Origin: Candidatus Moduliflexus flocculans
GTDB lineage: Bacteria > Moduliflexota > Moduliflexia > Moduliflexales > Moduliflexaceae
NCBI GenBank assembly: GCA_000739515.1
Contig: DF820455.1
Span: 1,258,203 to 1,304,711 of the forward strand
Length of the DNA: 46,509 nt
Direction of reading: 5' to 3'
In this document: one piece after another, positions 2,785 to 42,000 of the stretch
Numbering within the stretch: position 1 is the first letter of the stretch
Layout: the number at the start of each line of letters is the position of its first letter
Translations under genes and position numbers: made by a program
The notes under the pieces: generated by a model
What the model saw: only the letters and a program-made list of their open reading frames with translations
Told to the model about the DNA's origin: nothing
Databases searched by the model: none

Positions 2785-5700
2785 ATGAATGCCGCATTTC
2801 AGCCATTTATCGCGCCGCCGCTGTTATTGTATGACGGAGAGAATTCGCGCATTTATCGCGCAGAACTCGTTGAAACTCATGCGCCCGTCATTCTGAAAGT
2901 CCTTCGTTCCGATACCCCCACCCAACGCCAGCGCATTCAATTTTATAACGAATACGATTTTACCAAAGATTTGACCATTACAGGCGTGCGTTCTGCCTGC
3001 GGTCAGACGATCATCGAGCGGCATGATACACTGATTTTGCATTATGTGGATGGCTGCACGCTGAAGGAATGGCTGACGCACACTCCGCGTGCGTTGTCCG
3101 ATTTGCTACGAGTGGCGATTCGGATCGCGCAGATTCTCGGCGAAATTCACCAACATCACCTGATTCACAAGGATATCAACAGCCAGAATATTTTGATCCA
3201 ACCGGAACAGCAGAATGTGACGATTATTGATTTCGGCATTGCGTCGAAAGTGAGCTTAAAAATGCCGCATCTCGGCCACCCTGACCTGCTGGAAGGGACG
3301 CTGGCCTATATCTCGCCGGAGCAGACCGGCAGGATGAACCGCGTGGTGGACGAGCGCACCGATCTCTATTCTTTAGGCGTCACGCTGTATGAGATGTTTA
3401 CCGCGCATCTGCCGTTCGAGTCAGACGACCCGATGGAATTGGTGCATGCACATCTTGCCAAAACGCCGACCTCGCCGAATCAGATCAATCCCGAAATTCC
3501 TGATGCGCTTGGCCGCATTTTATTAAAGTTGTTAGCTAAAAATGCCGAAGACCGCTATCAATCGGCGTTTGGGCTGAAATGGGATTTGGAACAGTGCTTG
3601 GCGCGCCTTGAGACGTCATCTGTTTCCGCAATTGACGCGGAATTTCAGCTTGCGCAGCGCGACATTTCCGGCAAACTTCACCTGCCAGAGCGGTTGTATG
3701 GCCGGGAGCAGGAAATTGAAATCTTGCGGCAAGCATTTGAGCGGATCGCAAGCGCTTCTTCAAATGCGGCAGGGCATTCGGGGAAGGCCGAGTTACTGTT
3801 GGTTTCCGGCGTTGCCGGCGTTGGAAAATCGGCGTTAGCGCACGAGATGCACAGTCCGGTTGCCGCGCAACAGGGCTATTTTATTCAGGGCAAATTCGAT
3901 CAATTCCAGCAAGATATTCCGTATAGCGCGTTTATTCAAGCATTCGAGCAATTCGTCGAGGCACTGTTGACCTTCCCGGAAGCCGAACTCCGGCGCTGGC
4001 GCGACGCACTTCTTGCGGCGGCGGGGGGCATCGGCAAAGTGCTGACCGAATTGATTCCGACCTTAGAGTTCATTATCGGCAAGCAGCCAGAACTACCGGT
4101 TTCAGACAGCATTTCCGTTCAAAATCGTTTTGATTATGCGCTGCGCTGCTTCATTGGCGCCATCGCCCGCGCCGACCACCCGTTAGTGATTTTCTTAGAC
4201 GATTGGCAGTGGGCGGATTGGCCGTCTATCAAGCTGCTGGAAACGCTGTTGATGGATAAGACGCTTGAGCATCTCCTGATCATTGCGGCGTTCCGGGAAA
4301 ATGAGGTCGTTCCGACGCATCCATTTCTCCTGGCTGTGGAGCAGATCAGACAGACCGGAAGAGGCGCGCAGACGCTCCAGATCAAAAATCTAACCTTTGC
4401 CGATGTCTGCGCGTTGCTGGCGGACGCGCTTCAAAATCGCGCAATTGCTAACGTGCAGGGGTTAGCGCGGTTAGTGTATGGCAAGACGCAAGGGAACGCT
4501 TTTTTTACGCGCCAATTTCTGATCGCGCTGTATGAAGATGGCTTGCTGACGCTTGATTCCGAACAAATGGCGTGGCGCTGGGATATCGAGCAGATTCGAG
4601 AGAGAGCCATCTCAGATAACGTGGTCGCGCTGCTCACGCAAAAAGTGCAAAAGTTTTCCGCCGCGACGCAGCGCGCCTTATCCTTCGCGGCCTGCATCGG
4701 CAATCAGTTCCCCCTCTCCACCTTAGCCATCATTGCCGAACGGGAAGCGGCTGCCGTCAATCAGCTCTTAGAACCGGCAATTCTTGAAGGGTTGCTGCTC
4801 CCGAATCATCTCCATTTTCACCGGGCTGATCCGACGACCCTGCTCTATCGGTTTGCGCATGATCGCATCCAACAGGCGGCGTATACTCTTGTTCCCGATG
4901 CGGAGAAGCAGGCCGCACACTTGCGAATCGGGCGGCTGCTCCTCTCGAATATTCAGAAACATCAGTTCAGCGCAGATTCGGCTGAAATGGCGCGTTCGCC
5001 AGAACTTGACGAACGCCTGTTCGAAATTGTCAACCATTGGAATCTCGGACGGCACTTGATTGAAACGGCGGCAGAAAATATCGTGTTGGCGCGTTTGAAC
5101 CTGTGGGCAGGGCAAAAAGCCAAAGCGTCTGCCGCGCATGAATCCGCGCTGCATTATCTCTCCATCGGGATTGAGAACCTGCCAGAAGATGCCTGGGAAC
5201 GCTGGTATCCATTGACCTTTGCACTCTACCGTGAACAGTATGAATGCGCGTATGTATCAGGGAATTTCGAACAGGCGGAGCAACTATTTTCAATGATTTT
5301 GACTCATGCTCATTCAACAATAGATGCGGCAGCGATCTATAATATTCGCTTGATCAATTATGTCGGAGTCGCAAAAGAGCATGAATCATTCGATATTGGT
5401 CAGAAGGCGCTGCGCTTGTTCGGGATGAGCTTACCTGAAGGCGATCTGAATGCCGAGATTGTCAGAGAATTAGAGGCGATTCAGATGCGTTTACGCAACA
5501 AAGCGATTGCCGATCTTGTGCATCTGCCGCTCGTCACACATCCAGAATGCCGTGAAGCGATCAGAATTTTTATGAACCTTCTTACGCCCGCTTTTATCAG
5601 TAATCCCCTGTTATTCAAGTTTCTTATTGCGAAAGTCGTGCATATTAGCTTAGAAGAGGGTTTAACTCCAGAAATGCCCCAGGTATTCGCCGGATATGCC

Positions 5701-9355: not shown

Positions 9356-9763
9356 GACGTATCCCCCTCTTCTTAATGGCAAGGCTGTGAAGTTCTCGTT
9401 CCGCGTGGAACGAGGGGCAGCGCAACCCTCACAGGATTTAGAACGTCACAACTCTGCCTTCTTAATGGTCGAAGAATGTAATGCAGGTTTCTGTTGTGCT
9501 GTATGGCCGAATGCGAAGAAGTCAAGAGCGCAAAAAAGAAAAAGCCGCCCCGCTGTGAGATCAGAAAAAACGAGGGACGACAGGGTTGTTATCGCATTAT
9601 TCAATGACATTGGAGCCGGAGAACGCGTGTCAAATCTTGAGTTGACCGCAATATCAAAATTTCGCGCTCCTCATCGAATCTTTCGTCGTTTATATCAAGA
9701 GAGAAACCGCTTGACCGATTTATCAATTTAGTAAAATGCAAAAAATACATTCGCACAACAGAC

Positions 9764-9795
9764 CTCACAGGTCTCGAAGACCTGTGAGGTCTCCA
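9764..9795 (-). terminator. Family-1 hairpin copy (CCTCACAGGTCTCGAAGACCTGTGAGG). Its TTGTTG tail lies on the minus strand, so it is oriented as a minus-strand terminator.
   Basis: Perfect 10-bp stems. It lies in the divergent Rrf2/alr intergenic region, with no annotated minus-strand gene upstream of it. Confidence 0.5.
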
Positions 9796-9923
9796 CCACA
9801 AACATATTTTTTACATTTTACTTATGAATGAATTCTTTTGTAATTTTCGAGATATCCTGTTTGAAATCCAACTCGGAACGCGCAAAATTTTTCTTGACGG
9901 AAATTGCTGGCGGCACTTCAGCG

Positions 9924-13533: not shown

Positions 13534-13535
13534 TA

Positions 13536-13620
13536 GAACGCGGATGACGCGGATTGCGGATTCTCGCAAAAATTATTTTTATCATCGAAAATCCGAACAA
13601 TCCGCGTCATCCGCGTTCTC
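13536..13620. terminator. Family-4 long hairpin, GAACGCGGATGACGCGGATTG ... CAATCCGCGTCATCCGCGTTC. It sits between two convergent genes and probably acts as a bidirectional terminator.
   Basis: A 21-bp perfect inverted repeat with an AT-rich roughly 40-nt interior. A related copy lies at 38516-38605. Confidence 0.6.
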
Positions 13621-19347: not shown

Positions 19348-19361
19348 ATCCCGCCACCGAA

Positions 19362-19397
19362 CCCGTCAGACACCTGCAAGGTGTCTGACGGGTTTTA
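19362..19397 (+). terminator. Family-2 hairpin CCCGTCAGACACCT-gcaa-AGGTGTCTGACGGG followed by TTTTAC. Candidate intrinsic terminator of glgC.
   Basis: 14-bp perfect stem. A second copy with the same GTCAGACACCT core lies at 29760-29796. Confidence 0.6.
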
Positions 19398-26413: not shown

Positions 26414-26498
26414 GCGAGGATAACATTGGCGTGTCAGGCGCTTCCTGTGCGCCTGACACGCATGAAACGTGTTTCAACATAACCGCGCTGATGATTCT

Positions 26499-29464: not shown

Positions 29465-29759
29465 ACGCTCCTCCTTCGTTTTAATGGTTTTTGGATAAGA
29501 CCTCAGAGGCTGTTCTAACAGTCTGGAGTGCCAAAGCTTGCTTTGGCTGACAACGCAAGCAATGAACTGTCATAATGCTCGCATCTATGTATAGAAGGGA
29601 AAGTAAGGTTGTTCGATGAGAAAGTCAATAAAAAAATAGGAAAGACAGAAATGTCTTGTCACAATAATAATCTACGGCAGATTAACTGATGGGTTGAACA
29701 TGCCGCGCTGGAATTACGCTTGACAGAATGCTCGGCGTTCTGATAAGGTTGCGGGGAAA

Positions 29760-29796
29760 CTGTCAGACACCTTAAAGGTGTCTGACAGTTTTTTGG
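29760..29796 (+). terminator. Family-2 hairpin CTGTCAGACACCT-taa-AGGTGTCTGACAG plus TTTTTTGG. A strong intrinsic-terminator-like structure 50 bp upstream of cbiD.
   Basis: 13-bp perfect stem followed by a T6 run on the plus strand. It lies in the cbiD leader. Confidence 0.6.
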
Positions 29797-29844
29797 TTCA
29801 TAATATGTTGTTTCATGATAATGTTGGAAAAGGTTTGAACATGT

Positions 29845-30942
29845 ATGCTGAGAATAGACGATCTGCATGACATCAAAGACGGTCAGCGCCTCCGTTGCGG
29901 CTACACGACCGGCAGTTGTGCCGCCGCTGCCGCCAAAGCTGCCGCGCTGATGCTGCGCGACGGCGCAATTCCTGAATTTGTCGAGTTGGAAACGCCCGCT
30001 GGAATTACGCTGAATTTGCGGGTCGAACAGCCGCGTCTTGAGGCGGATCGCGCTTCATGCTGCATCGTGAAAGACGCGGGCGATGACCCGGATGTGACGA
30101 ACGGCATCGGGATTTTTGCTAAGGTGAAACGCCGTTCTGACGGTGAAATCAGCATTGACGGCGGCGAAGGCATCGGACGCATCACGCGCAAGGGTTTCTG
30201 GGGCGAAGTCGGCGACGCGGCGATTAATCCCGTGCCGCGCAAGATGATTCGCGATGCGGTGCGTCAGGTGGCGGCTCATGGCTGGGACGTGTTGATTTTC
30301 GCGCCGCACGGGCGGGAAATTGCGCAGAAGACCTTCAACCCGAACCTCGGCATCGAAGACGGCATTTCGATTATCGGCACAACTGGCATCGTGCGGCCAA
30401 TGTCGGATGATGCGCTGAAAAAAACGATTTTTTTAGAAATTGATCAGATTGCCGAAACGAGCGCAGCGGAAATTCTGCTCTGCCTCGGCAATTACGGCGA
30501 AAAAATGTCGGTGGCGCTGCCGCGCCGGATGCCGATGGTGAAAATCGCCAATTTCATCGGCGAATCGCTGGCGTACTGTCATAGCAAAGGCTTCCAGCAG
30601 GTAACACTGTTCGGACATGTCGGCAAGCTCAGCAAGCTCGCCATCGGCGCGTTTAATACGCATAACCGCGTCTGCGACGCCCGAATCGAGGCATTCGTTT
30701 ATTATCTCGCCCTTGCCGGAGCGCCGTATGCGTTGCTGCAACAGGTCAACCAGTGTGTCACATCAGAAGATGCGGCGCAACTGCTGATTGATAGCGGCCA
30801 CCGGCAGCTATTCGCGGAGATGCAGCGCGGCTGCGTTGAACGAATTCAACGCTATGTCAAAGACGATGGTTTTATCGTTGACGTGATTTTTTACTCGCTG
30901 CGACATGGAATACTGGTTGACAATTCCCTGACATCTAACTAA
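29845..30942 (+). CDS. cbiD: Cobalt-precorrin-5B (C1)-methyltransferase CbiD.
   Basis: LRCGYTTGSCAAAAAKAAALML is a CbiD hallmark. Length 365 aa. Confidence 0.9.
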   Translation: MLRIDDLHDIKDGQRLRCGYTTGSCAAAAAKAAALMLRDGAIPEFVELETPAGITLNLRVEQPRLEADRASCCIVKDAGDDPDVTNGIGIFAKVKRRSDGEISIDGGEGIGRITRKGFWGEVGDAAINPVPRKMIRDAVRQVAAHGWDVLIFAPHGREIAQKTFNPNLGIEDGISIIGTTGIVRPMSDDALKKTIFLEIDQIAETSAAEILLCLGNYGEKMSVALPRRMPMVKIANFIGESLAYCHSKGFQQVTLFGHVGKLSKLAIGAFNTHNRVCDARIEAFVYYLALAGAPYALLQQVNQCVTSEDAAQLLIDSGHRQLFAEMQRGCVERIQRYVKDDGFIVDVIFYSLRHGILVDNSLTSN

Positions 30943-31144
30943 TTTGGTTTTTGTCATAAGATATTACTGATCCAGTCATTTTCAGGAGTGCAAACGCGTG
31001 CTTGCCGCATGAAGTCGTCACGTCTTTCCCTGACGTTATCAGACCGCAAAAGCAGTCACAGTACCATCCCTCGAAACCGTCGAACAGGAACTTGCGAAGG
31101 TATCGGCGAAATGATTTGCGGAAATCTGCGGTTGACGCATTGTT

Positions 31145-31747
31145 ATGTTATCACTGATCGGCATGGGGCCGGGGCATATTGATTACGTGACGCCAGAAGC
31201 GGCGGCGGCGATTCGACGCGCTGACATCGTCTTAGCGTTCGACCGCGTGGCGGAAACTGCCGAATTGATCAGAACGCCGATTGTGCGGATTCGACGGCTG
31301 GATGACATCTTTGCGCATCTCGCGCCGGAACGCGATGTCGCGTTGCTGGTGTCCGGCGATCCCGGCTTTTTCAGCATGTTGGAATATCTCCACGCGCAAC
31401 GCGTCGAAATCGGGCGCGTGATTCCGGGCATTTCGTCGCTGCAATATTTTATGGCGGCGCTGCGCAAAAGCTGGCACGGCGTGACCTGCCTGAGTTTGCA
31501 CGGCAGAGACGACGATTTGGCGGCGCTGAAGGATGTTCGCATCGCGGCGATGTTGACGGATAAAATCAATACGCCGCAACATATTTCAAAACGCCTGCAT
31601 CAATTGGCATGGCGAGGCCGCCTGTATGTCGGCTCGCATCTCTCCTATCCGAACGAACGGATTCTCGCGGCGCGAATCGGCGACGAGATTGACGACGACG
31701 GCTCGCTTTCGATTGTGGTGGTGGAACGGGATGAAATGGCTTCGTGA
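31145..31747 (+). CDS. cbiE: Cobalt-precorrin-7 (C5)-methyltransferase CbiE.
   Basis: N-terminus LIGMGPGHIDYVTPEAAAAIRRADIV matches the tetrapyrrole methylase fold. It is adjacent to and overlaps cbiT. Confidence 0.8.
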   Translation: MLSLIGMGPGHIDYVTPEAAAAIRRADIVLAFDRVAETAELIRTPIVRIRRLDDIFAHLAPERDVALLVSGDPGFFSMLEYLHAQRVEIGRVIPGISSLQYFMAALRKSWHGVTCLSLHGRDDDLAALKDVRIAAMLTDKINTPQHISKRLHQLAWRGRLYVGSHLSYPNERILAARIGDEIDDDGSLSIVVVERDEMAS

Positions 31748-32306
31748 TGACGAATTCGAGCGCGGCGAGATTCCGATGACAAAATTTGAGGCGCGTGTCC
31801 TCTCCCTTGCGTTGTCAGGCATCGGCGCGGGCGATCTGTTTGTGGATATCGGCGCCGGCACTGGATCAATTGCGGTACAAGCGGCGCTGCTTGGCGCGGA
31901 CGTGTACGCCATCGAACGTGAGGCGGCAGGTGTGGCGCTGATTCAGAAAAATGCTGATAAATTCGGCGTTCGCATTCAAGTTTTGCATGGCTCTGCGCCA
32001 GAACAACTTGCCGAAATTCAGAATATAGACGCCTGTTTTATCGGCGGGAGTGGCGGCCAATTGCCGCAAATTGTTCGCGAAGCGCATCGTCGCCTGCGTC
32101 CCGGCGGGCGCATTGTCGCGAATTTTATCCGACCGGACACGATGACGCAATTCACGCAATTATTGAAAGAATGCGCCTGCGTCAACGTCGAAACCCGTCT
32201 GCTGCAAACGGCTGTCAGCGATTCATTCGGCATGTTGCGCGGGCAGAATCCGATCTTTTTAGTCAGTGGAATCAAATGTAGGGGCGAACCCCTGTGTTCG
32301 CCCTAA
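31731..32306 (+). CDS. cbiT: Cobalt-precorrin-6B C15-methyltransferase (decarboxylating) CbiT.
   Basis: MTKFEARVLSLALSGIGAGDLFVDIGAGTGSIAVQAALLGADVYAIERE carries a SAM-binding GxGxG. The ATG at 31731 overlaps the cbiE end by 17 nt. Confidence 0.85.
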   Translation: MKWLRDDEFERGEIPMTKFEARVLSLALSGIGAGDLFVDIGAGTGSIAVQAALLGADVYAIEREAAGVALIQKNADKFGVRIQVLHGSAPEQLAEIQNIDACFIGGSGGQLPQIVREAHRRLRPGGRIVANFIRPDTMTQFTQLLKECACVNVETRLLQTAVSDSFGMLRGQNPIFLVSGIKCRGEPLCSP

Positions 32307-32325
32307 AAACAACGACCGGATAACA

Positions 32326-32358
32326 CCTCACAGGTTTTGAAAACCTGTGAGGTTTGTA
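32326..32358 (+). terminator. Family-1 hairpin copy (CCTCACAGGTTTTGAAAACCTGTGAGG + TTTGTATG) located inside the cbi operon between cbiT and cbiL.
   Basis: Perfect 10-bp stems. It ends 10 nt before the cbiL start codon. Confidence 0.55.
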
Positions 32359-32368
32359 TGAGATATTT

Positions 32369-33034
32369 ATGAAAACATTGTATGGCGTCGGGGTCGGCCC
32401 CGGCGACCCGGAACTGGTCACGCTGAAAGCGATCCGCGTCATTCGCGAGGCCGATTACATCTTTGTGCCGCGCCCGAAAAAAGAGTCTGAAGGCATGGCG
32501 GAAGCGATTGTGGCGGAACATCTGGCCGGAAAGCAGGTCGTATATCTGCATCTGCCGATGGGCGCGGATAATTCGGAACGCTACCGGGAAATTGCGAGCG
32601 AGATTGACGCGACGCTGCGCGATGACGAAAACGGCGCATTCATTACGATCGGCGATCCGATGGTCTATAGCACATTTGCGTATCTCATGTTCGCGGCGCA
32701 GACGCTCGGCATTCGGACGCGTATCGTGCCGGGCATTCCCTCATTTGTGGCAGCTTCCGCCGCGCTTGGTGAGCCGCTTGCGATTCGCGACGACAGCTTT
32801 TATCTCGCCGATGGCAGCGTTGACGAGGAAATTTTGCGGCGTGTGCAAACAGTCTGTGTGTTGAAACCGCGAAAAGAGTTGGCACACACCCTTGACAAAT
32901 TCGAACAATACGGCTTCGACTATGCGTATCTGAAACGCTGCTCGCTGCCAGAAGAAGAAATTATTCGCGACCGTGACCGCATCGCGCAGGATCGCGACTA
33001 CATGACGCTGTTGTTTGCCAGAAAAAAAGAATAG
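32369..33034 (+). CDS. cbiL: Cobalt-precorrin-2 C20-methyltransferase CbiL.
   Basis: MKTLYGVGVGPGDPELVTLKAIRVIREADYIFVP. Confidence 0.85.
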   Translation: MKTLYGVGVGPGDPELVTLKAIRVIREADYIFVPRPKKESEGMAEAIVAEHLAGKQVVYLHLPMGADNSERYREIASEIDATLRDDENGAFITIGDPMVYSTFAYLMFAAQTLGIRTRIVPGIPSFVAASAALGEPLAIRDDSFYLADGSVDEEILRRVQTVCVLKPRKELAHTLDKFEQYGFDYAYLKRCSLPEEEIIRDRDRIAQDRDYMTLLFARKKE

Positions 33035-33042
33035 AATTCATA

Positions 33043-33080
33043 TAGGGTGCAAAAGCAAGCTTTTGCACTCCTATTTTTCT
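33043..33080 (+). terminator. Family-5 perfect palindrome GGAGTGCAAAAGC-AA-GCTTTTGCACTCC followed by TATTTTTCT, between cbiL and cbiF.
   Basis: 13-bp perfect arms plus a T-run. Other copies at 33841-33891 (tandem/extended), 30983-31011 (degenerate) and 29527-29552 (degenerate). Confidence 0.6.
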
Positions 33081-33083
33081 CGG

Positions 33084-33833
33084 ATGATTTATTTTGTCGG
33101 CGCAGGGCCGGGAGACGTAGATTTGATCACGGTGAAAGGCCGCCGTTTATTAGAAACGGCGGATGTCGTCATTTACGCCGGGTCGTTGGTCTGGGACGCG
33201 CATCTGCGCTTTTGCAAGCCAGAATGCGAGCGCTACGACAGCGCGGGCATGACGCTGGAAGCGGTGCTTGACATCATGGCGCAAGCCGAAGCCGCCGGGA
33301 GAATGACCGTCCGGCTGCATACCGGCGATCCGACGATTTACGGCGCAATCGGCGAGCAGATGGCGGCGTTGGATCAACGCGGCATCTTATATGACATTGT
33401 GCCGGGTGTCAGTTCCTTTACCGCCAGTTGCGCTGCCGTGAAGCGGGAATTCACCGTGCCGAATGTCAGCCAAACTATCATCGTGACGCGCCTCGAAGGC
33501 CGCACGCCCGTTCCGCCTTTGGAATCATTAGAATCGCTCGCCGCGCATCGCTGCTCGTTGGCAATTTTTTTGTCGGTGCAAGATATTGAAAATGTCGTCG
33601 TCAAACTCAAAAGCGGCTACGGGCGCGACGACGTGCCGGTAGCGGTCATCTATAAAGCAACCTGGCCGGAGCAGCAGATTGTGCGCGGCACGCTCGCTGA
33701 CATTGCCGAACACGTCCGCGCCGCCGGAATCAAAAATTTTGCGCAGATTCTCGTCGGCGATTTTTTGAACGCCCACGGCGAACGCTCGCTGCTGTATCAC
33801 CCCGACTTTTCGCATGGATTCAGACAGAATTAA
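33084..33833 (+). CDS. cbiF: Cobalt-precorrin-4 C11-methyltransferase CbiF.
   Basis: MIYFVGAGPGDVDLITVKGRRLLETADVVIYAGSLV is the canonical CbiF/CobM N-terminus. Confidence 0.9.
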   Translation: MIYFVGAGPGDVDLITVKGRRLLETADVVIYAGSLVWDAHLRFCKPECERYDSAGMTLEAVLDIMAQAEAAGRMTVRLHTGDPTIYGAIGEQMAALDQRGILYDIVPGVSSFTASCAAVKREFTVPNVSQTIIVTRLEGRTPVPPLESLESLAAHRCSLAIFLSVQDIENVVVKLKSGYGRDDVPVAVIYKATWPEQQIVRGTLADIAEHVRAAGIKNFAQILVGDFLNAHGERSLLYHPDFSHGFRQN

Positions 33834-33840
33834 TGCTTTC

Positions 33841-33891
33841 CAGGAGTGCAAAAGCTTGCTTTTGCGGCAAAAGCAAGCTTTTGCACTCCTG
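33841..33891. repeat. Family-5 palindrome in extended/tandem form (CAGGAGTGCAAAAGCTTGCTTTTGC-GGC-AAAAGCAAGCTTTTGCACTCCTG), between cbiF and cbiG.
   Basis: A 51-bp near-perfect palindrome read directly. Confidence 0.6.
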
Positions 33892-33899
33892 ATGCGACA

Positions 33900-34865
33900 A
33901 TGAATATTGCGTGTTTGACATTCACCCATCGCGGATTTGAATTAGCGGAACGCTTGCAAGGCTCGTATCAAGGGCGCGTGGAAGTGTTTGCCAAGGAAAC
34001 CTATAAAGATGAACTTCCGCGCATTTTCGAGGAATTTGAGGGCGTCGTGTTCGTGGCCTCCACCGGCATCGCGGTGCGGCTCTCTGCGCCATTTCTCAAG
34101 GGAAAAACCAAAGACCCGGCGATTGTCGTCGTGGATGATATGGGACGATACGCCATCAGCCTCGTTTCCGGTCATCTCGGCGGCGCGAATGCGTTGGCGC
34201 AGGAAATCGCGGAATTGCTCGACTGCCAGCCGATTATCACGACTGCTTCCGATGCGCGAAAAATCGAATCTATTGACCTGTTTGCGCAAAAGCATCATTT
34301 AGTCATCGCAGACATGCTGGACGCCAAGCTGATTACTGGCATGATGGTGGACGGCAGGCCGATCCGCCTTGACAGCGAAATTCCGGTGACGCTCGATTAT
34401 ACGCATCTCTCCGACGATGAATACGATGGGTGCATTTACGTGACATCGCAGCGCCATGTGGAAAGTAATGTGCCATGTTGCGTATTGCATCCGAAAACGC
34501 TCCATGTCGGGCTTGGCTGCCGCCGCGGCAAAACGGCGAAAGAGATTATGGACGCCATTACGCAGGTGTTTCAGGAAGAAAATCTCTGCCTCAGCAGCAT
34601 TCGCTCGATTGCCACGACCGAAATCAAGCAGGAAGAGCCGGGCATTCTCGAAGCCGTCAATCGGCTCGGCGCGGAACTCCGCATCTTCACACATTCGCAG
34701 ATTCGCAGCGTGCAAGACCGTTTTGTCAGAAGCGAATTTGTCGAACGCACGATTGGCGTCAGCGCTGTCAGCGAGCCGTGTGCCTATCTCGCAGGCGGCG
34801 ACGTGATTGTCGGCAAAATCGCGATGCACGGCGTCACAGTGGCCGTTGCGAGGGAAACGCCATGA
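33900..34865 (+). CDS. cbiG: Cobalt-precorrin-5A hydrolase CbiG.
   Basis: MNIACLTFTHRGFELAERL... together with the C-terminal CbiG domain. The ATG at 33900 follows the palindrome. The ORF-track start at 33846 lies inside the palindrome and is unlikely. Confidence 0.8.
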   Translation: MNIACLTFTHRGFELAERLQGSYQGRVEVFAKETYKDELPRIFEEFEGVVFVASTGIAVRLSAPFLKGKTKDPAIVVVDDMGRYAISLVSGHLGGANALAQEIAELLDCQPIITTASDARKIESIDLFAQKHHLVIADMLDAKLITGMMVDGRPIRLDSEIPVTLDYTHLSDDEYDGCIYVTSQRHVESNVPCCVLHPKTLHVGLGCRRGKTAKEIMDAITQVFQEENLCLSSIRSIATTEIKQEEPGILEAVNRLGAELRIFTHSQIRSVQDRFVRSEFVERTIGVSAVSEPCAYLAGGDVIVGKIAMHGVTVAVARETP

Positions 34866-35449
34866 CGATTTACACGAAAACCGGAGATGACGGCACAACC
34901 AGCGTCATCGGCGGGCGACTGCCGAAAGACGACGCGCGGGTCGAGGCGTATGGCGCGATTGACGAACTGAATTCGCAGATCGGGCTGGCAATTGCCGAAC
35001 TTGACGCAGGGCGAGACGCCGATTTATTGGCGGATTTGACGGAAATTCAGCAACAGCTATTCGATTGCTGTTCCGATTTGGCGACGCTGCGCCCGGAATT
35101 GCGGGCATATCGCATCACGCCGGAACACGCCGAGCGCCTCGAGCCGCGTATTGACCACTACAACGCGCAAACCATCCCTCTCGAATATTTTATCCTGCCC
35201 GGCGGCGCGCGGTTGTCGGCGTTGCTGCATGTTTGCCGCACGGTGGCGCGACGAGCGGAACGGTGCGTTATTACGCTGGAACGCGAAGCGCAAACCGTGA
35301 ACCCTGCCGTCAAAATTTACCTGAATCGCCTCTCTGATCTCTGTTTCGTAATGGCGCGAGCGGCGAATGCGCGGGCAGGCGTGGCGGATGTCTGCTATGC
35401 GCGGAGCAAAAAGATTTTTAAATGCAAGTCGCCAATCATCACCACGTGA
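34862..35449 (+). CDS. PduO-type ATP:cob(I)alamin adenosyltransferase.
   Basis: MTIYTKTGDDGTTSVIGGRLPKDDARVEAYGAIDELNSQIGLA is the canonical PduO-type N-terminus. The start overlaps the cbiG stop (ATGA). Confidence 0.85.
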   Translation: MTIYTKTGDDGTTSVIGGRLPKDDARVEAYGAIDELNSQIGLAIAELDAGRDADLLADLTEIQQQLFDCCSDLATLRPELRAYRITPEHAERLEPRIDHYNAQTIPLEYFILPGGARLSALLHVCRTVARRAERCVITLEREAQTVNPAVKIYLNRLSDLCFVMARAANARAGVADVCYARSKKIFKCKSPIITT

Positions 35450-38509: not shown

Positions 38510-38515
38510 CAACAG

Positions 38516-38605
38516 AGAGAACGCGGATGATGCGGAGCGCGCGGATTCTCGCGGAAACACAACGCCATCTGTGAAAATCCGCGCCATGCGCGTTATGCGC
38601 GTTCT
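38516..38605. terminator. Family-4 long hairpin (GAGAACGCGGATGATGCGGAGCGCGCGGATTCTC ... GAAAATCCGCGCCATGCGCGTTATGCGCGTTCTC).
   Basis: Imperfect inverted repeat of about 34 bp. It shares the GAGAACGCGGATGA/TCATCCGCGTTCTC termini with the copy at 13536. Confidence 0.55.
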
Positions 38606-38617
38606 CTCTCCGATTGT

Positions 38618-39202
38618 ATGAAACATCAATGGCATTTTTTATGGCTTTTTGTCGGCGCATGCTGCCTGTTCCCGGCTAATCGCGCCGTATCTCAGGACAC
38701 TCAGCCAGAAACGCTTCGATTGCCGGAAGTTGTGATCATCGGCATTGACGAATCGAAAATTCAGCGTCCGATTCCAAAAGTTGAATTGCTTCCCGCGTCG
38801 CTTCCGGTGATGACAACGTCGTGTTTGGATGAGGCGGATGCGTTGGCGTGGCAGGCGGCGTTGGTGGCGCTGCTTCAGCCGCGCAAGGCGGAAAAATTGT
38901 ATCAACAGGCGATTGCGCTTGATCCGGAAGATACAGACGCCTATGCGCGTTTGGGAAAAACATATCAGGCGTCCGGCATGTACGAACGCGCGAAAGATGC
39001 CTATCTCAAGGCCATCGAACGCGATAGCGGCGTCAGCGACATGCATTATGCGTTAGGCATTTTGTATGACAGCCATTTGCGTGAGCCGCAAAAAGCGCTT
39101 GAACAGTATCGTGTCTATCTTGAGCATGGCGGCGCGGATGCGCGGGTGAAATTCTGGATGCGGGAACTTGAGGAGAAATTGCAATCGCCGACAACTCCGT
39201 AG
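38618..39202 (+). CDS. Secreted TPR-repeat protein.
   Basis: Signal peptide. TPR-like repeats (YQQAIALDPEDTDAYARLGKTY..., YLKAIERDSGVSDMHYALGILY). Confidence 0.65.
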   Translation: MKHQWHFLWLFVGACCLFPANRAVSQDTQPETLRLPEVVIIGIDESKIQRPIPKVELLPASLPVMTTSCLDEADALAWQAALVALLQPRKAEKLYQQAIALDPEDTDAYARLGKTYQASGMYERAKDAYLKAIERDSGVSDMHYALGILYDSHLREPQKALEQYRVYLEHGGADARVKFWMRELEEKLQSPTTP

Positions 39203-39226
39203 AGACGCACGGCTGTGCGTCTCTAC
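39199..39226. terminator. Family-3 hairpin GTAGAGACGCAC-GGCT-GTGCGTCTCTAC, between convergent genes.
   Basis: 12-bp perfect stem. A second copy lies at 41967-42000. Confidence 0.6.
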
Positions 39227-39236
39227 GTTGCGGGGA

Positions 39237-41966: not shown

Positions 41967-42000
41967 CCGGTAGAGACGCGCGGGTGCGCGTCTCTACCGG
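41967..42000. terminator. Family-3 hairpin CCGGTAGAGACGCGC-GGGT-GCGCGTCTCTACCGG, about 30 bp downstream of the MCP stop on the minus strand.
   Basis: 15-bp perfect stem read directly. Confidence 0.6.

Follow-up and report, generated by a model that had tools for sequence, protein, structure and literature searches.

A REP-like palindromic repeat in the spacers of a cobalamin biosynthesis operon from Candidatus Moduliflexus flocculans

We analysed a stretch of 46,509 nucleotides (nt) from Candidatus (Ca.) Moduliflexus flocculans (contig DF820455.1, positions 1,258,203 to 1,304,711), hereafter the window. The window contains a cbi operon for the anaerobic cobalamin pathway, and spacers of this operon carry a short palindrome that we call family-5. 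A first-pass annotation had proposed that family-5 palindromes, together with a family-1 hairpin, punctuate the operon. They were thought to direct engineered differential mRNA decay or translation, in the manner of repetitive extragenic palindromes (REPs), or to be an operator for a dimeric regulator. We find family-5 scattered, apparently in low to moderate numbers of copies, through Moduliflexota and further anaerobic lineages, most of them filamentous. The element has a defined anatomy, lies beside unrelated genes and exists as genome-specific variants. Its base pairing is maintained, and it has been gained, lost or rearranged between relatives. Our preferred interpretation, to which we assign a probability of roughly 0.7, is that family-5 is a repeat of the REP type, or of the type of REP doublets forming hairpins (REPINs). 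It would have inserted in the spacers of an otherwise compact operon, outside cobalamin regulation.

The host operon (29845-35449, forward strand) has the gene order cbiD-cbiE-cbiT-cbiL-cbiF-cbiG-pduO, and Pfam searches agreed with the order first proposed. All genes are on the forward strand: cbiD (29845-30942), cbiE (31145-31747), cbiT (31731-32306), cbiL (32369-33034), cbiF (33084-33833), cbiG (33900-34865) and a gene for a PduO-type adenosyltransferase (34862-35449). Spacers measure 202 nt between cbiD and cbiE, 49 nt between cbiL and cbiF, and 66 nt between cbiF and cbiG. Hairpins had been placed between nearly every gene. This is somewhat overstated. Of the four internal spacers, three have an intact hairpin and one a relic, and at the cbiE/cbiT and cbiG/pduO junctions the genes overlap.

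The cbiF-cbiG spacer contains an inverted dimer of family-5 (33841-33891), which reads (GGAGT-GCAAAAGC-TT-GCTTTTGC) G (GCAAAAGC-AA-GCTTTTGC-ACTCC). The arms (33841-33865 and 33867-33891) are 25 nt each, 100% complementary and separated by 1 nt. The 51-bp extended version described for this spacer is therefore real. The dimer begins 7 nt past the cbiF stop codon, ends 8 nt short of the cbiG ATG and has a predicted folding energy of -42.5 kcal/mol (z -7.2). The cbiL-cbiF spacer contains a single unit, or collapsed dimer (33042-33074), with the structure ATAGG-GTGCAAAAGC AA GCTTTTGCACTCCTAT, then TTTTTCT. It begins 7 nt past the cbiL stop codon and ends 9 nt short of the cbiF ATG. This copy had been described as a perfect 28-bp palindrome. 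The hairpin exists, but the sequence (AGGGTGCAAAAGCAAGCTTTTGCACTCC) has two mismatches to the consensus used for that description, and the 13-bp stem contains one bulge (-17.4 kcal/mol, z -6.4 against shuffled sequences). The covariance model recognises it with an E-value of about 1e-8. T-runs had been reported after some copies; in a terminator scan the cbiL-cbiF copy (33045-33070) has one after its stem, and no other family-5 site in the window does.

Degenerate copies had been noted upstream of the operon and between cbiD and cbiE. Both are present, as half-site relics with one mismatch each to the half-site GGAGTGCAAAAGC, but their predicted folding is no better than that of shuffles (z -0.6 and -0.05, respectively). 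Upstream of cbiD, the relic (29525-29547; covariance E 0.73) reads GGAGTGCCAAAGC TT GCTTTGGC. Its half-site spans 29525-29537 and its 3' outer arm is lost. The inner hairpin, GCCAAAGC-TT-GCTTTGGC, is retained via a compensated A>C / T>G change. In the cbiD-cbiE spacer, the half-site GGAGTGCAAACGC (30985-30997, forward strand) is missing its 3' partner arm. With up to two mismatches allowed, half-site GGAGTGCAAAAGC has seven matches in the window, against 1.55 expected, and 0 of 100 shuffles reach seven. All seven fall within 29525-33889. The inner palindrome has four matches (0.19 expected). Run with filters off, the covariance model detected no further family-5 copy in the 46.5-kb window.

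Briefly, each family-5 unit consists of a 5-nt tag, GGAGT, and an 8-bp hairpin (GCAAAAGC, a loop of 2-5 nt, and GCTTTTGC). In the long form, two units are inverted with the tags outside, an arrangement known as an 'HH dimer' in the nomenclature of PMC3733652. The whole may also fold as one stem of 24-25 bp. The 28-nt form is a collapsed dimer, in which one hairpin bears both tags. Single forms have a 13-bp stem and a loop of 2-8 nt, and the inner unit is an 8-bp stem. Half-sites are 2, 3, 4, 5 or 8 nt apart in singles and 21-460 nt apart in dimers. Hence, the spacing fits a hairpin and not a duplex operator for a dimeric protein. Each genome has loops of its own length and sequence. Loops measure 2 nt in the lineage of the window and 4 nt in Caldilineaceae; all Desulfobacteraceae contigs have 3 nt (TGT/ACA), and Anaerolineales HSG25 has 5 nt. 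This points to amplification or homogenisation of family-5 within each genome.

Inverted dimers with complementary loops recur in other phyla (loci L015, L021, L037, L082, L091, L100, L102 and L106). The dimer spacer is 1 nt in the window, 28 nt in L117, 36 nt in L120, 1-7 nt in L015, L021, L082, L100 and L106, and 100-460 nt in L102, L122, L126 and L127. End modules are found 7, 28, 36, 100-113 or 390-460 nt apart. The intervening DNA is unrelated sequence and includes other nested repeats. There are also hairpin sub-families that have only the outer GGAGTGC...GCACTCC stem in common and differ in their interiors (L142:2174-2216; L065:5111-5139; L102:1203-1265 and 4912-4974; L123:3307-3351; L133:5151-5177). 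Among these, one lies at the cbiG-pduO junction of another relative and one consists of tandem GGAGTGC heptamers.

Maintenance of pairing was assessed in 106 distinct sequences aligned to the model. In this set, which is biased by the mode of discovery and counts palindromes on both strands, 99.8% of cells are paired. Changes on both sides of the stem affect three pairs and 13 cells. In 500 shuffles, 13 such cells were never reached, and slid controls gave 0-2. Compensated variants occur at position 29530, in L120, in L043 (GGTGT/ACACC), in L133 (GGGGTCC/GGACCCC, two pairs) and in L010. We conclude that the pairing data support a requirement for the hairpin; they do not distinguish DNA from RNA.

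We scanned one genome per species with a pattern that fixed only the inner 10+10 bases, GTGCAAAAGC...GCTTTTGCAC. At least 116 loci were recovered. About 27 of the 116 matches listed also carry GGA...TCC flanks, which the pattern did not require and which would be met by chance in about 1 match in 4096. Among those listed, flanked matches derive from Ca. Vecturithrix, Ca. Moduliflexus, four Anaerolineales assemblies (two with Mb-scale contigs), a Caldilineaceae metagenome-assembled genome (MAG), three Desulfobacterales assemblies and one Acidobacteria MAG. In one Ca. Moduliflexus MAG locus, L065, the window's family-5 hairpin occurs together with its family-1 hairpin. For several MAGs, the matches listed place family-5 copies on 4-6 contigs. 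The exact full pattern occurs in 18 contigs of a metagenome collection and in none of a viral contig collection. These sequence matches support the presence of family-5 in at least three or four phyla, beside unrelated genes.

The neighbours of family-5 copies are diverse housekeeping genes, among them those for RNase III, MutL, GatB, NAD synthase, starch synthase, PEPCK, glycosyltransferases and response regulators. No Pfam family is enriched among 45 + 85 + 10 open reading frames (ORFs) around copies. Using tblastn, homologues of the window's Cbi proteins were found at 0 of 42 other family-5 loci (24 + 18 loci, among the matches listed). All 25 elements examined are intergenic, or touch only an over-extended ORF start. 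According to crude ORF calls, flanking genes are co-directional in about 13 cases, convergent in five and divergent in three. The first-pass annotation had reasoned that a regulon motif would be restricted to cob/cbi loci. Instead, copies are scattered and unrelated to cobalamin genes. What did stand is the REP-like identity suggested there, since family-5 is a dispersed extragenic palindromic repeat, in single and inverted-dimer forms, beside unrelated genes. In Rfam 15, the window, family-5 included, has no match at the gathering score, and a relaxed E-value returned only generic miRNA-hairpin matches far below threshold. A full-text literature search with family-5 sequence strings returned unrelated primer or coincidental matches only.

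Comparison of related operons revealed how the elements change. The CbiG protein of the window is 98% identical to a metagenomic protein and 58-65% identical to others, including one labelled candidate division KSB3. These identities, with the hairpins shared with L065, place the window in a Moduliflexota-like genome. Exact look-ups of its CbiF, CbiD and PduO proteins gave no record. The cbi gene order is the same in relatives L117, L119, L120, L139 and L140. The closely related loci L117/L118 have 89.7% nucleotide identity with the window from cbiE to past pduO. Here, the cbiF-cbiG palindrome (33842-33891) is identical, with 0 substitutions in 50 nt where about five are expected from the ~10% divergence elsewhere. 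Conversely, at the cbiL-cbiF junction, L117 has a dimer with a 28-nt spacer, in a 96-nt gap, and the window has a single unit. This difference corresponds to 46 nt lost or gained, with the direct repeat GCAAAAGC, plus 1 nt, as its boundary. In the family-1 hairpin, a compensated pair sets the two apart (GGTTTT/AAAACC in the window, GGTCTT/AAGACC in L117).

Upstream, homology with L117 starts at 31140. The 3' end of cbiD and the cbiD-cbiE spacer do not align with L117:2-616. The 202-nt spacer of the window, which bears the relic, has no homologue in L117, where 93 nt of unrelated sequence are found. This suggests a recombination or replacement breakpoint at the repeat-bearing spacer. In L119 and L120, whose CbiG proteins are 64% and 61% identical to that of the window, diverged family-5 sequence is present between cbiF and cbiG, nested among other repeats. 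CbiG proteins of L139-L142 are 58-62% identical. In L139, cbiF and cbiG overlap. In L140, the cbiF-cbiG junction is 5 nt, the element is absent and the operon is generally compact. L141 and L142 have other palindrome families or an extra ORF at these junctions. Judged from these alignments, spacers of the operon appear to be recurrent landing or retention sites for several repeat families, and the cbi operon evidently works without the repeats. 'Engineered' differential decay is not demonstrated. Relatives have a compact operon or different repeats, and a close relative has a structurally different cbiL-cbiF copy.

Family-5 resembles known REPs in many respects. REPs are extragenic palindromes of 20-40 nt with stems of 5-13 bp and loops of 2-20 nt (PMC3733652). 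HH dimers predominate, with spacers of 1-5 to about 100 nt and DNA between the partners, and singletons are dimer remnants. REPs lie between co-directional and convergent genes, and families range from thousands of copies down to fewer than 100 (PMC3733652). Compared with the GTAG/CGTC super-families (Di Nocera et al. 2013, PMC3733652), which include the E. coli REP/BIME and Stenotrophomonas SMAG elements, family-5 is alike in unit size, stem and short loop. It also shares a conserved tag beside the hairpin, singles and tag-outside dimers with DNA between partners, genome-specific variants, and extragenic placement near stop codons of co-directional or convergent genes. There are differences. 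The family-5 tag, GGAGT, is paired with ACTCC, whereas the REP tag, GTAG or CGTC, is unpaired. The same 13-bp stem is common to several phyla, which is unusual for REPs, and the copy number seems low. In addition, no flanked gene for a REP-associated tyrosine transposase (RAYT) was found in about 400 kb around copies. On the sequence evidence, we consider family-5 a new sequence family of a known kind, REP/REPIN, and this classification is supported by the features above.

The likeness extends to REPIN-RAYT systems (Bertels and Rainey 2011, PMC3116915; PMC3337134). In these, two inverted REP units form one long hairpin that is the replicating unit, as family-5 dimers would. REPIN singlets are remnants of doublets, and the window and L117 display such a conversion at cbiL-cbiF. 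A genome typically has tens to hundreds of REPINs and a single-copy RAYT. Family-5 differs in the missing RAYT around its copies and in a distribution that crosses phyla. Correia/NEMIS elements of Neisseria are miniature inverted-repeat transposable elements (MITEs). RNase III cleavage of Neisseria mRNAs is given as the topic of a paper cited in PMC3733652. Like Correia/NEMIS elements, family-5 copies are short non-coding repeats that lie next to genes, would be transcribed along with them and fold into long hairpins, and some resemble two terminal modules around 100-460 nt. Unlike them, family-5 has no target-site duplication, no conserved interior and a minimal element of 28 nt. A classical MITE is disfavoured as an explanation; the ends are inverted repeats but target-site duplication is absent. 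This duplication is lacking in 29 of 37 elements and is only 1-2 nt, as by chance, in the others. Reading of the sequences also led us to drop attC sites (no R'/R'' core), CRISPR repeats (no array) and IS200/IS605 ends (the two ends are symmetric, not co-oriented).

We searched for a mobilising enzyme in about 400 kb around copies. No ORF with an HUH...Y motif was found there with a regular expression. No phmmer match was obtained in the same DNA to the query sequences taken as IS608 TnpA and the E. coli RAYT. Among the 25 most frequent Pfam families listed for the 45 + 85 + 10 neighbouring ORFs there is no transposase, though a single one could be hidden. Pfam searches of a further 20 ORFs in the window detected none. 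Separately, we observed that a 194-amino acid (aa) protein (L133:4555-5139) has family-5-type hairpins on both sides, no Pfam match and no HUH motif.

Several observations weigh against a REP/REPIN-type repeat that is merely inserted. All four copies or relics sit in five consecutive spacers of one operon, and the window's 42 kb outside the cbi cluster has none. By a rough count, 5 of 12,650 placements of four copies in 25 gaps match this clustering (about 4e-4). A diverged copy occupies the same cbiF-cbiG junction in L119/L120, despite CbiG being only 61-64% identical. Together, clustering and this shared position would also fit selection for a local function. The GTAG/CGTC or CTAC/GACG consensus is absent from the flanks of 23 singles. 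Copy number looks low, with 18 exact copies in the whole metagenome collection. The roughly 400 kb searched around copies, which do not include the rest of each genome, yielded neither a tyrosine transposase nor any other. The effects on mRNA that we infer below, as a decay barrier, RNase III site or weak terminator, are plausible. For the four-copy cluster itself, local hopping, local duplication or a selected RNA function could each be the explanation.

A rival reading takes up that last option: cbi copies would be kept by selection as post-transcriptional control. A decay barrier, RNase III site or partial terminator would set the ratio of Cbi enzymes, and the repeats would be domesticated, not merely tolerated. 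Besides the concentration of copies in one operon and the recognisable copy at the same junction in L119 and L120, this reading can draw on the 50-nt palindrome that is unchanged in L117/L118 against ~10% nucleotide divergence. However, intramolecular correction or gene conversion can also conserve a perfect palindrome. The hairpins start 7 nt past stop codons, and one has a U-rich tail. Reported effects of REPs and related repeats, according to the background section and references of PMC3733652, concern the stability of mRNA, attenuation and processing by RNase III. Relatives argue the other way. L139 and L140 have a tight cbiF-cbiG junction without the element; in L141 and L142 this junction is occupied by unrelated repeats or an extra ORF. 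The structure of the cbiL-cbiF copy differs between relatives that are 90% identical, and two of the window's copies have decayed to relics and lost their fold. On balance, we judge selected control to be unlikely.

Ordinary intrinsic (Rho-independent) terminators, sharing sequence by chance, are a much poorer explanation that we regard as very improbable. The cbiL-cbiF copy does fit a terminator consensus scan, with its stem followed by CTATTTTTCT, and elsewhere 11 of 37 distinct elements have, on one strand, five or more T among the 8 nt that follow the stem. The other 26 have no T-rich tail on either strand, and neither has the cbiF-cbiG copy. Many copies separate genes of a single operon that run in the same direction. 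A 13-bp stem common to several phyla would not be expected of independent terminators, and neither would inverted dimers with inserted DNA. The lowest probability, close to nil, goes to a duplex operator for a dimeric transcription factor of a cobalamin regulon, bound at several positions of the operon. Palindromic symmetry and the several copies in one operon had made this attractive. Furthermore, an Rfam scan detected no cobalamin riboswitch anywhere in the window, the region upstream of cbiD (29465-29844) included, and the same operon in L119 and L120 has one upstream (L119:4364-4625; L120:5643-5892), so that some other regulator is imaginable for the window. Yet none of the 42 other loci has cbi genes, and neighbours are functionally unrelated. 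Half-sites stand 2 to 8 nt apart in singles, and in dimers the distance reaches 460 nt. Compensated changes keep pairing, not sequence, and the copies are found in spacers within the operon rather than at a promoter. We reject a shared cobalamin operator.

How might a REP/REPIN-type repeat arrive in the operon and what might it do there? We propose that family-5 spreads, or is homogenised, through a single-stranded hairpin intermediate and a trans-acting enzyme; a RAYT-like tyrosine transposase would be the precedent. Once transcribed in the operon, hairpins would act on mRNA as a by-product. REPs can shield the mRNA upstream of them against 3' exonucleases and cause attenuation of transcription. 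Reportedly, in work from 2015 attributed to Liang, Rudd and Deutscher, they can also depress translation of a gene whose stop codon is within about 15 nt upstream of them. The stem-loops 7 nt past the cbiL and cbiF stop codons could block 3' exonucleases in this way. The 25-bp perfect duplex would be long enough to be a plausible RNase III substrate, and at the cbiL-cbiF copy, which has a U-rich tail, some transcripts may end. In combination, these effects would uncouple the levels of cbiD-L, cbiF and cbiG-pduO.

A bolder scenario would make GGAGTGC-tagged hairpins a REPIN-like system carried, along with a putative hairpin-specific enzyme, from one phylum of filamentous anaerobes to another (Moduliflexota, Anaerolineae/Caldilineae, Desulfobacterales and possibly Acidobacteriota). 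Accumulation in the cbi operon would then reflect local hopping or recruitment for RNA processing. We hold this to be doubtful. Extensive gene exchange has been suggested among filamentous bacteria, including Desulfonema and KSB3 (PMC6390638). The sharing of family-5 across phyla matches this suggestion, as a lead and not as a test.

Family-5 is accompanied by other palindromes. The family-1 hairpin proposed between cbiT and cbiL was confirmed at 32325-32353 (ACCTCACAGGTTTT G AAAACCTGTGAGGT). Its 14-nt arms are 100% complementary, and it folds with -21.3 kcal/mol (z -4.7). Further copies are at 1262-1296 and 9762-9790 in the window, and family-1 is also present in L065 and in L124. Going by these sequences, family-1 is a second REP-like family. 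A family-2 hairpin with 17-nt arms, followed by TTTTTT, lies 53 nt upstream of cbiD (29757-29791; -31.6 kcal/mol, z -8.3) and a second copy is at 19360-19394. Its sequence suggests that the hairpin before cbiD is a terminator or insulator. The last part of cbiT contains a small palindrome, GGGCGAAC..GTTCGCCC (32282-32303), that continues into the stop codon (32304-32306). CbiT is 191 aa long in the window and 184 aa in L117, the 3' ends differ, and in the cbiT-cbiL alignment with L117 homology is lost upstream of the family-1 hairpin. The end of cbiT thus seems to have been remodelled by repeat insertion.

At least four other palindromic repeat families occur in intergenic spacers of the window. 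Intergenic palindromic repeats outside the operon are at 1262-1296, 9730-9822, 13535-13619, 19360-19394, 26429-26461, 38514-38609, 39198-39227 and 41967-42000. Of 25 gaps of at least 20 nt, 14 hold an uninterrupted helix of at least 12 bp, from several repeat families. Dense intergenic hairpins characterise the whole genome and not the cbi operon specifically. The other genes of the window are ordinary chromosomal ones (alr, ruvABC, yebC, and genes for ABC transporters, a methyl-accepting chemotaxis protein and tetratricopeptide repeat proteins).

Three side observations were made. Downstream of a kinase gene, a G-rich cluster of nested palindromes (2500-2640) reads GTGACGTTCTC ... CCCCTCTCC GAA GGAGAGGGG ... 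CCCTCCCC TTCG GGGGAGGG ... GAGAACGTCAC. The cluster looks MITE-like, and the composite family-5 copy of L122 encloses a G-rich motif similar to it. The gap at 2083-2784 had been a candidate for a super-structured region and was rejected, as it is mostly coding sequence. The kinase itself is encoded by an ORF with Response_reg and HisKA domains (1294-2082; Pfam) and an ORF in another frame (2015-2452) that by eye resembles the HATPase portion of one and the same hybrid kinase. An A9 run (2056-2064) lies where the two frames overlap. The split is either a frameshift, phase-variable or marking a pseudogene, or a sequencing error. Lastly, a sequence of about 50 nt, TAACCGGCGTGCAAAAGCAGAGCGAAGCGGCGCTTTTGCACGTCCGAGTTG, unrelated to family-5, is nearly identical in at least 25 genomes of many phyla, including Proteobacteria, Nitrospirota, Armatimonadota, Patescibacteria and Actinomycetes (L002, L006, L008, L009 at 1080-1112, L011, L027, L028, L032, L035, L038, L040, L041, L050, L053, L063, L068, L069, L071, L083, L084, L092, L094, L099, L105 and L114). 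It has no Rfam match in L009 and looks like part of a widely transferred mobile element.

Our analysis removes a false lead, in that the palindromes are neither a cobalamin operator nor a designed punctuation of the operon. It also documents a REP-like family in uncultivated lineages that has no relevant match in Rfam or in a full-text sequence search. For annotation, such repeats account for odd spacers, altered gene ends and recombination breakpoints in these genomes. For specialists, the point of interest is an identical 13-bp stem and tag common to phyla whose filamentous members are suspected of gene exchange (PMC6390638). REPIN-RAYT systems are described in a preprint (bioRxiv 10.1101/2022.05.22.493013) as mostly vertically inherited. 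A REPIN-like system that crosses phyla would, if true, contrast with this largely vertical inheritance. If a cognate enzyme exists, family-5 would be a handle for finding it.

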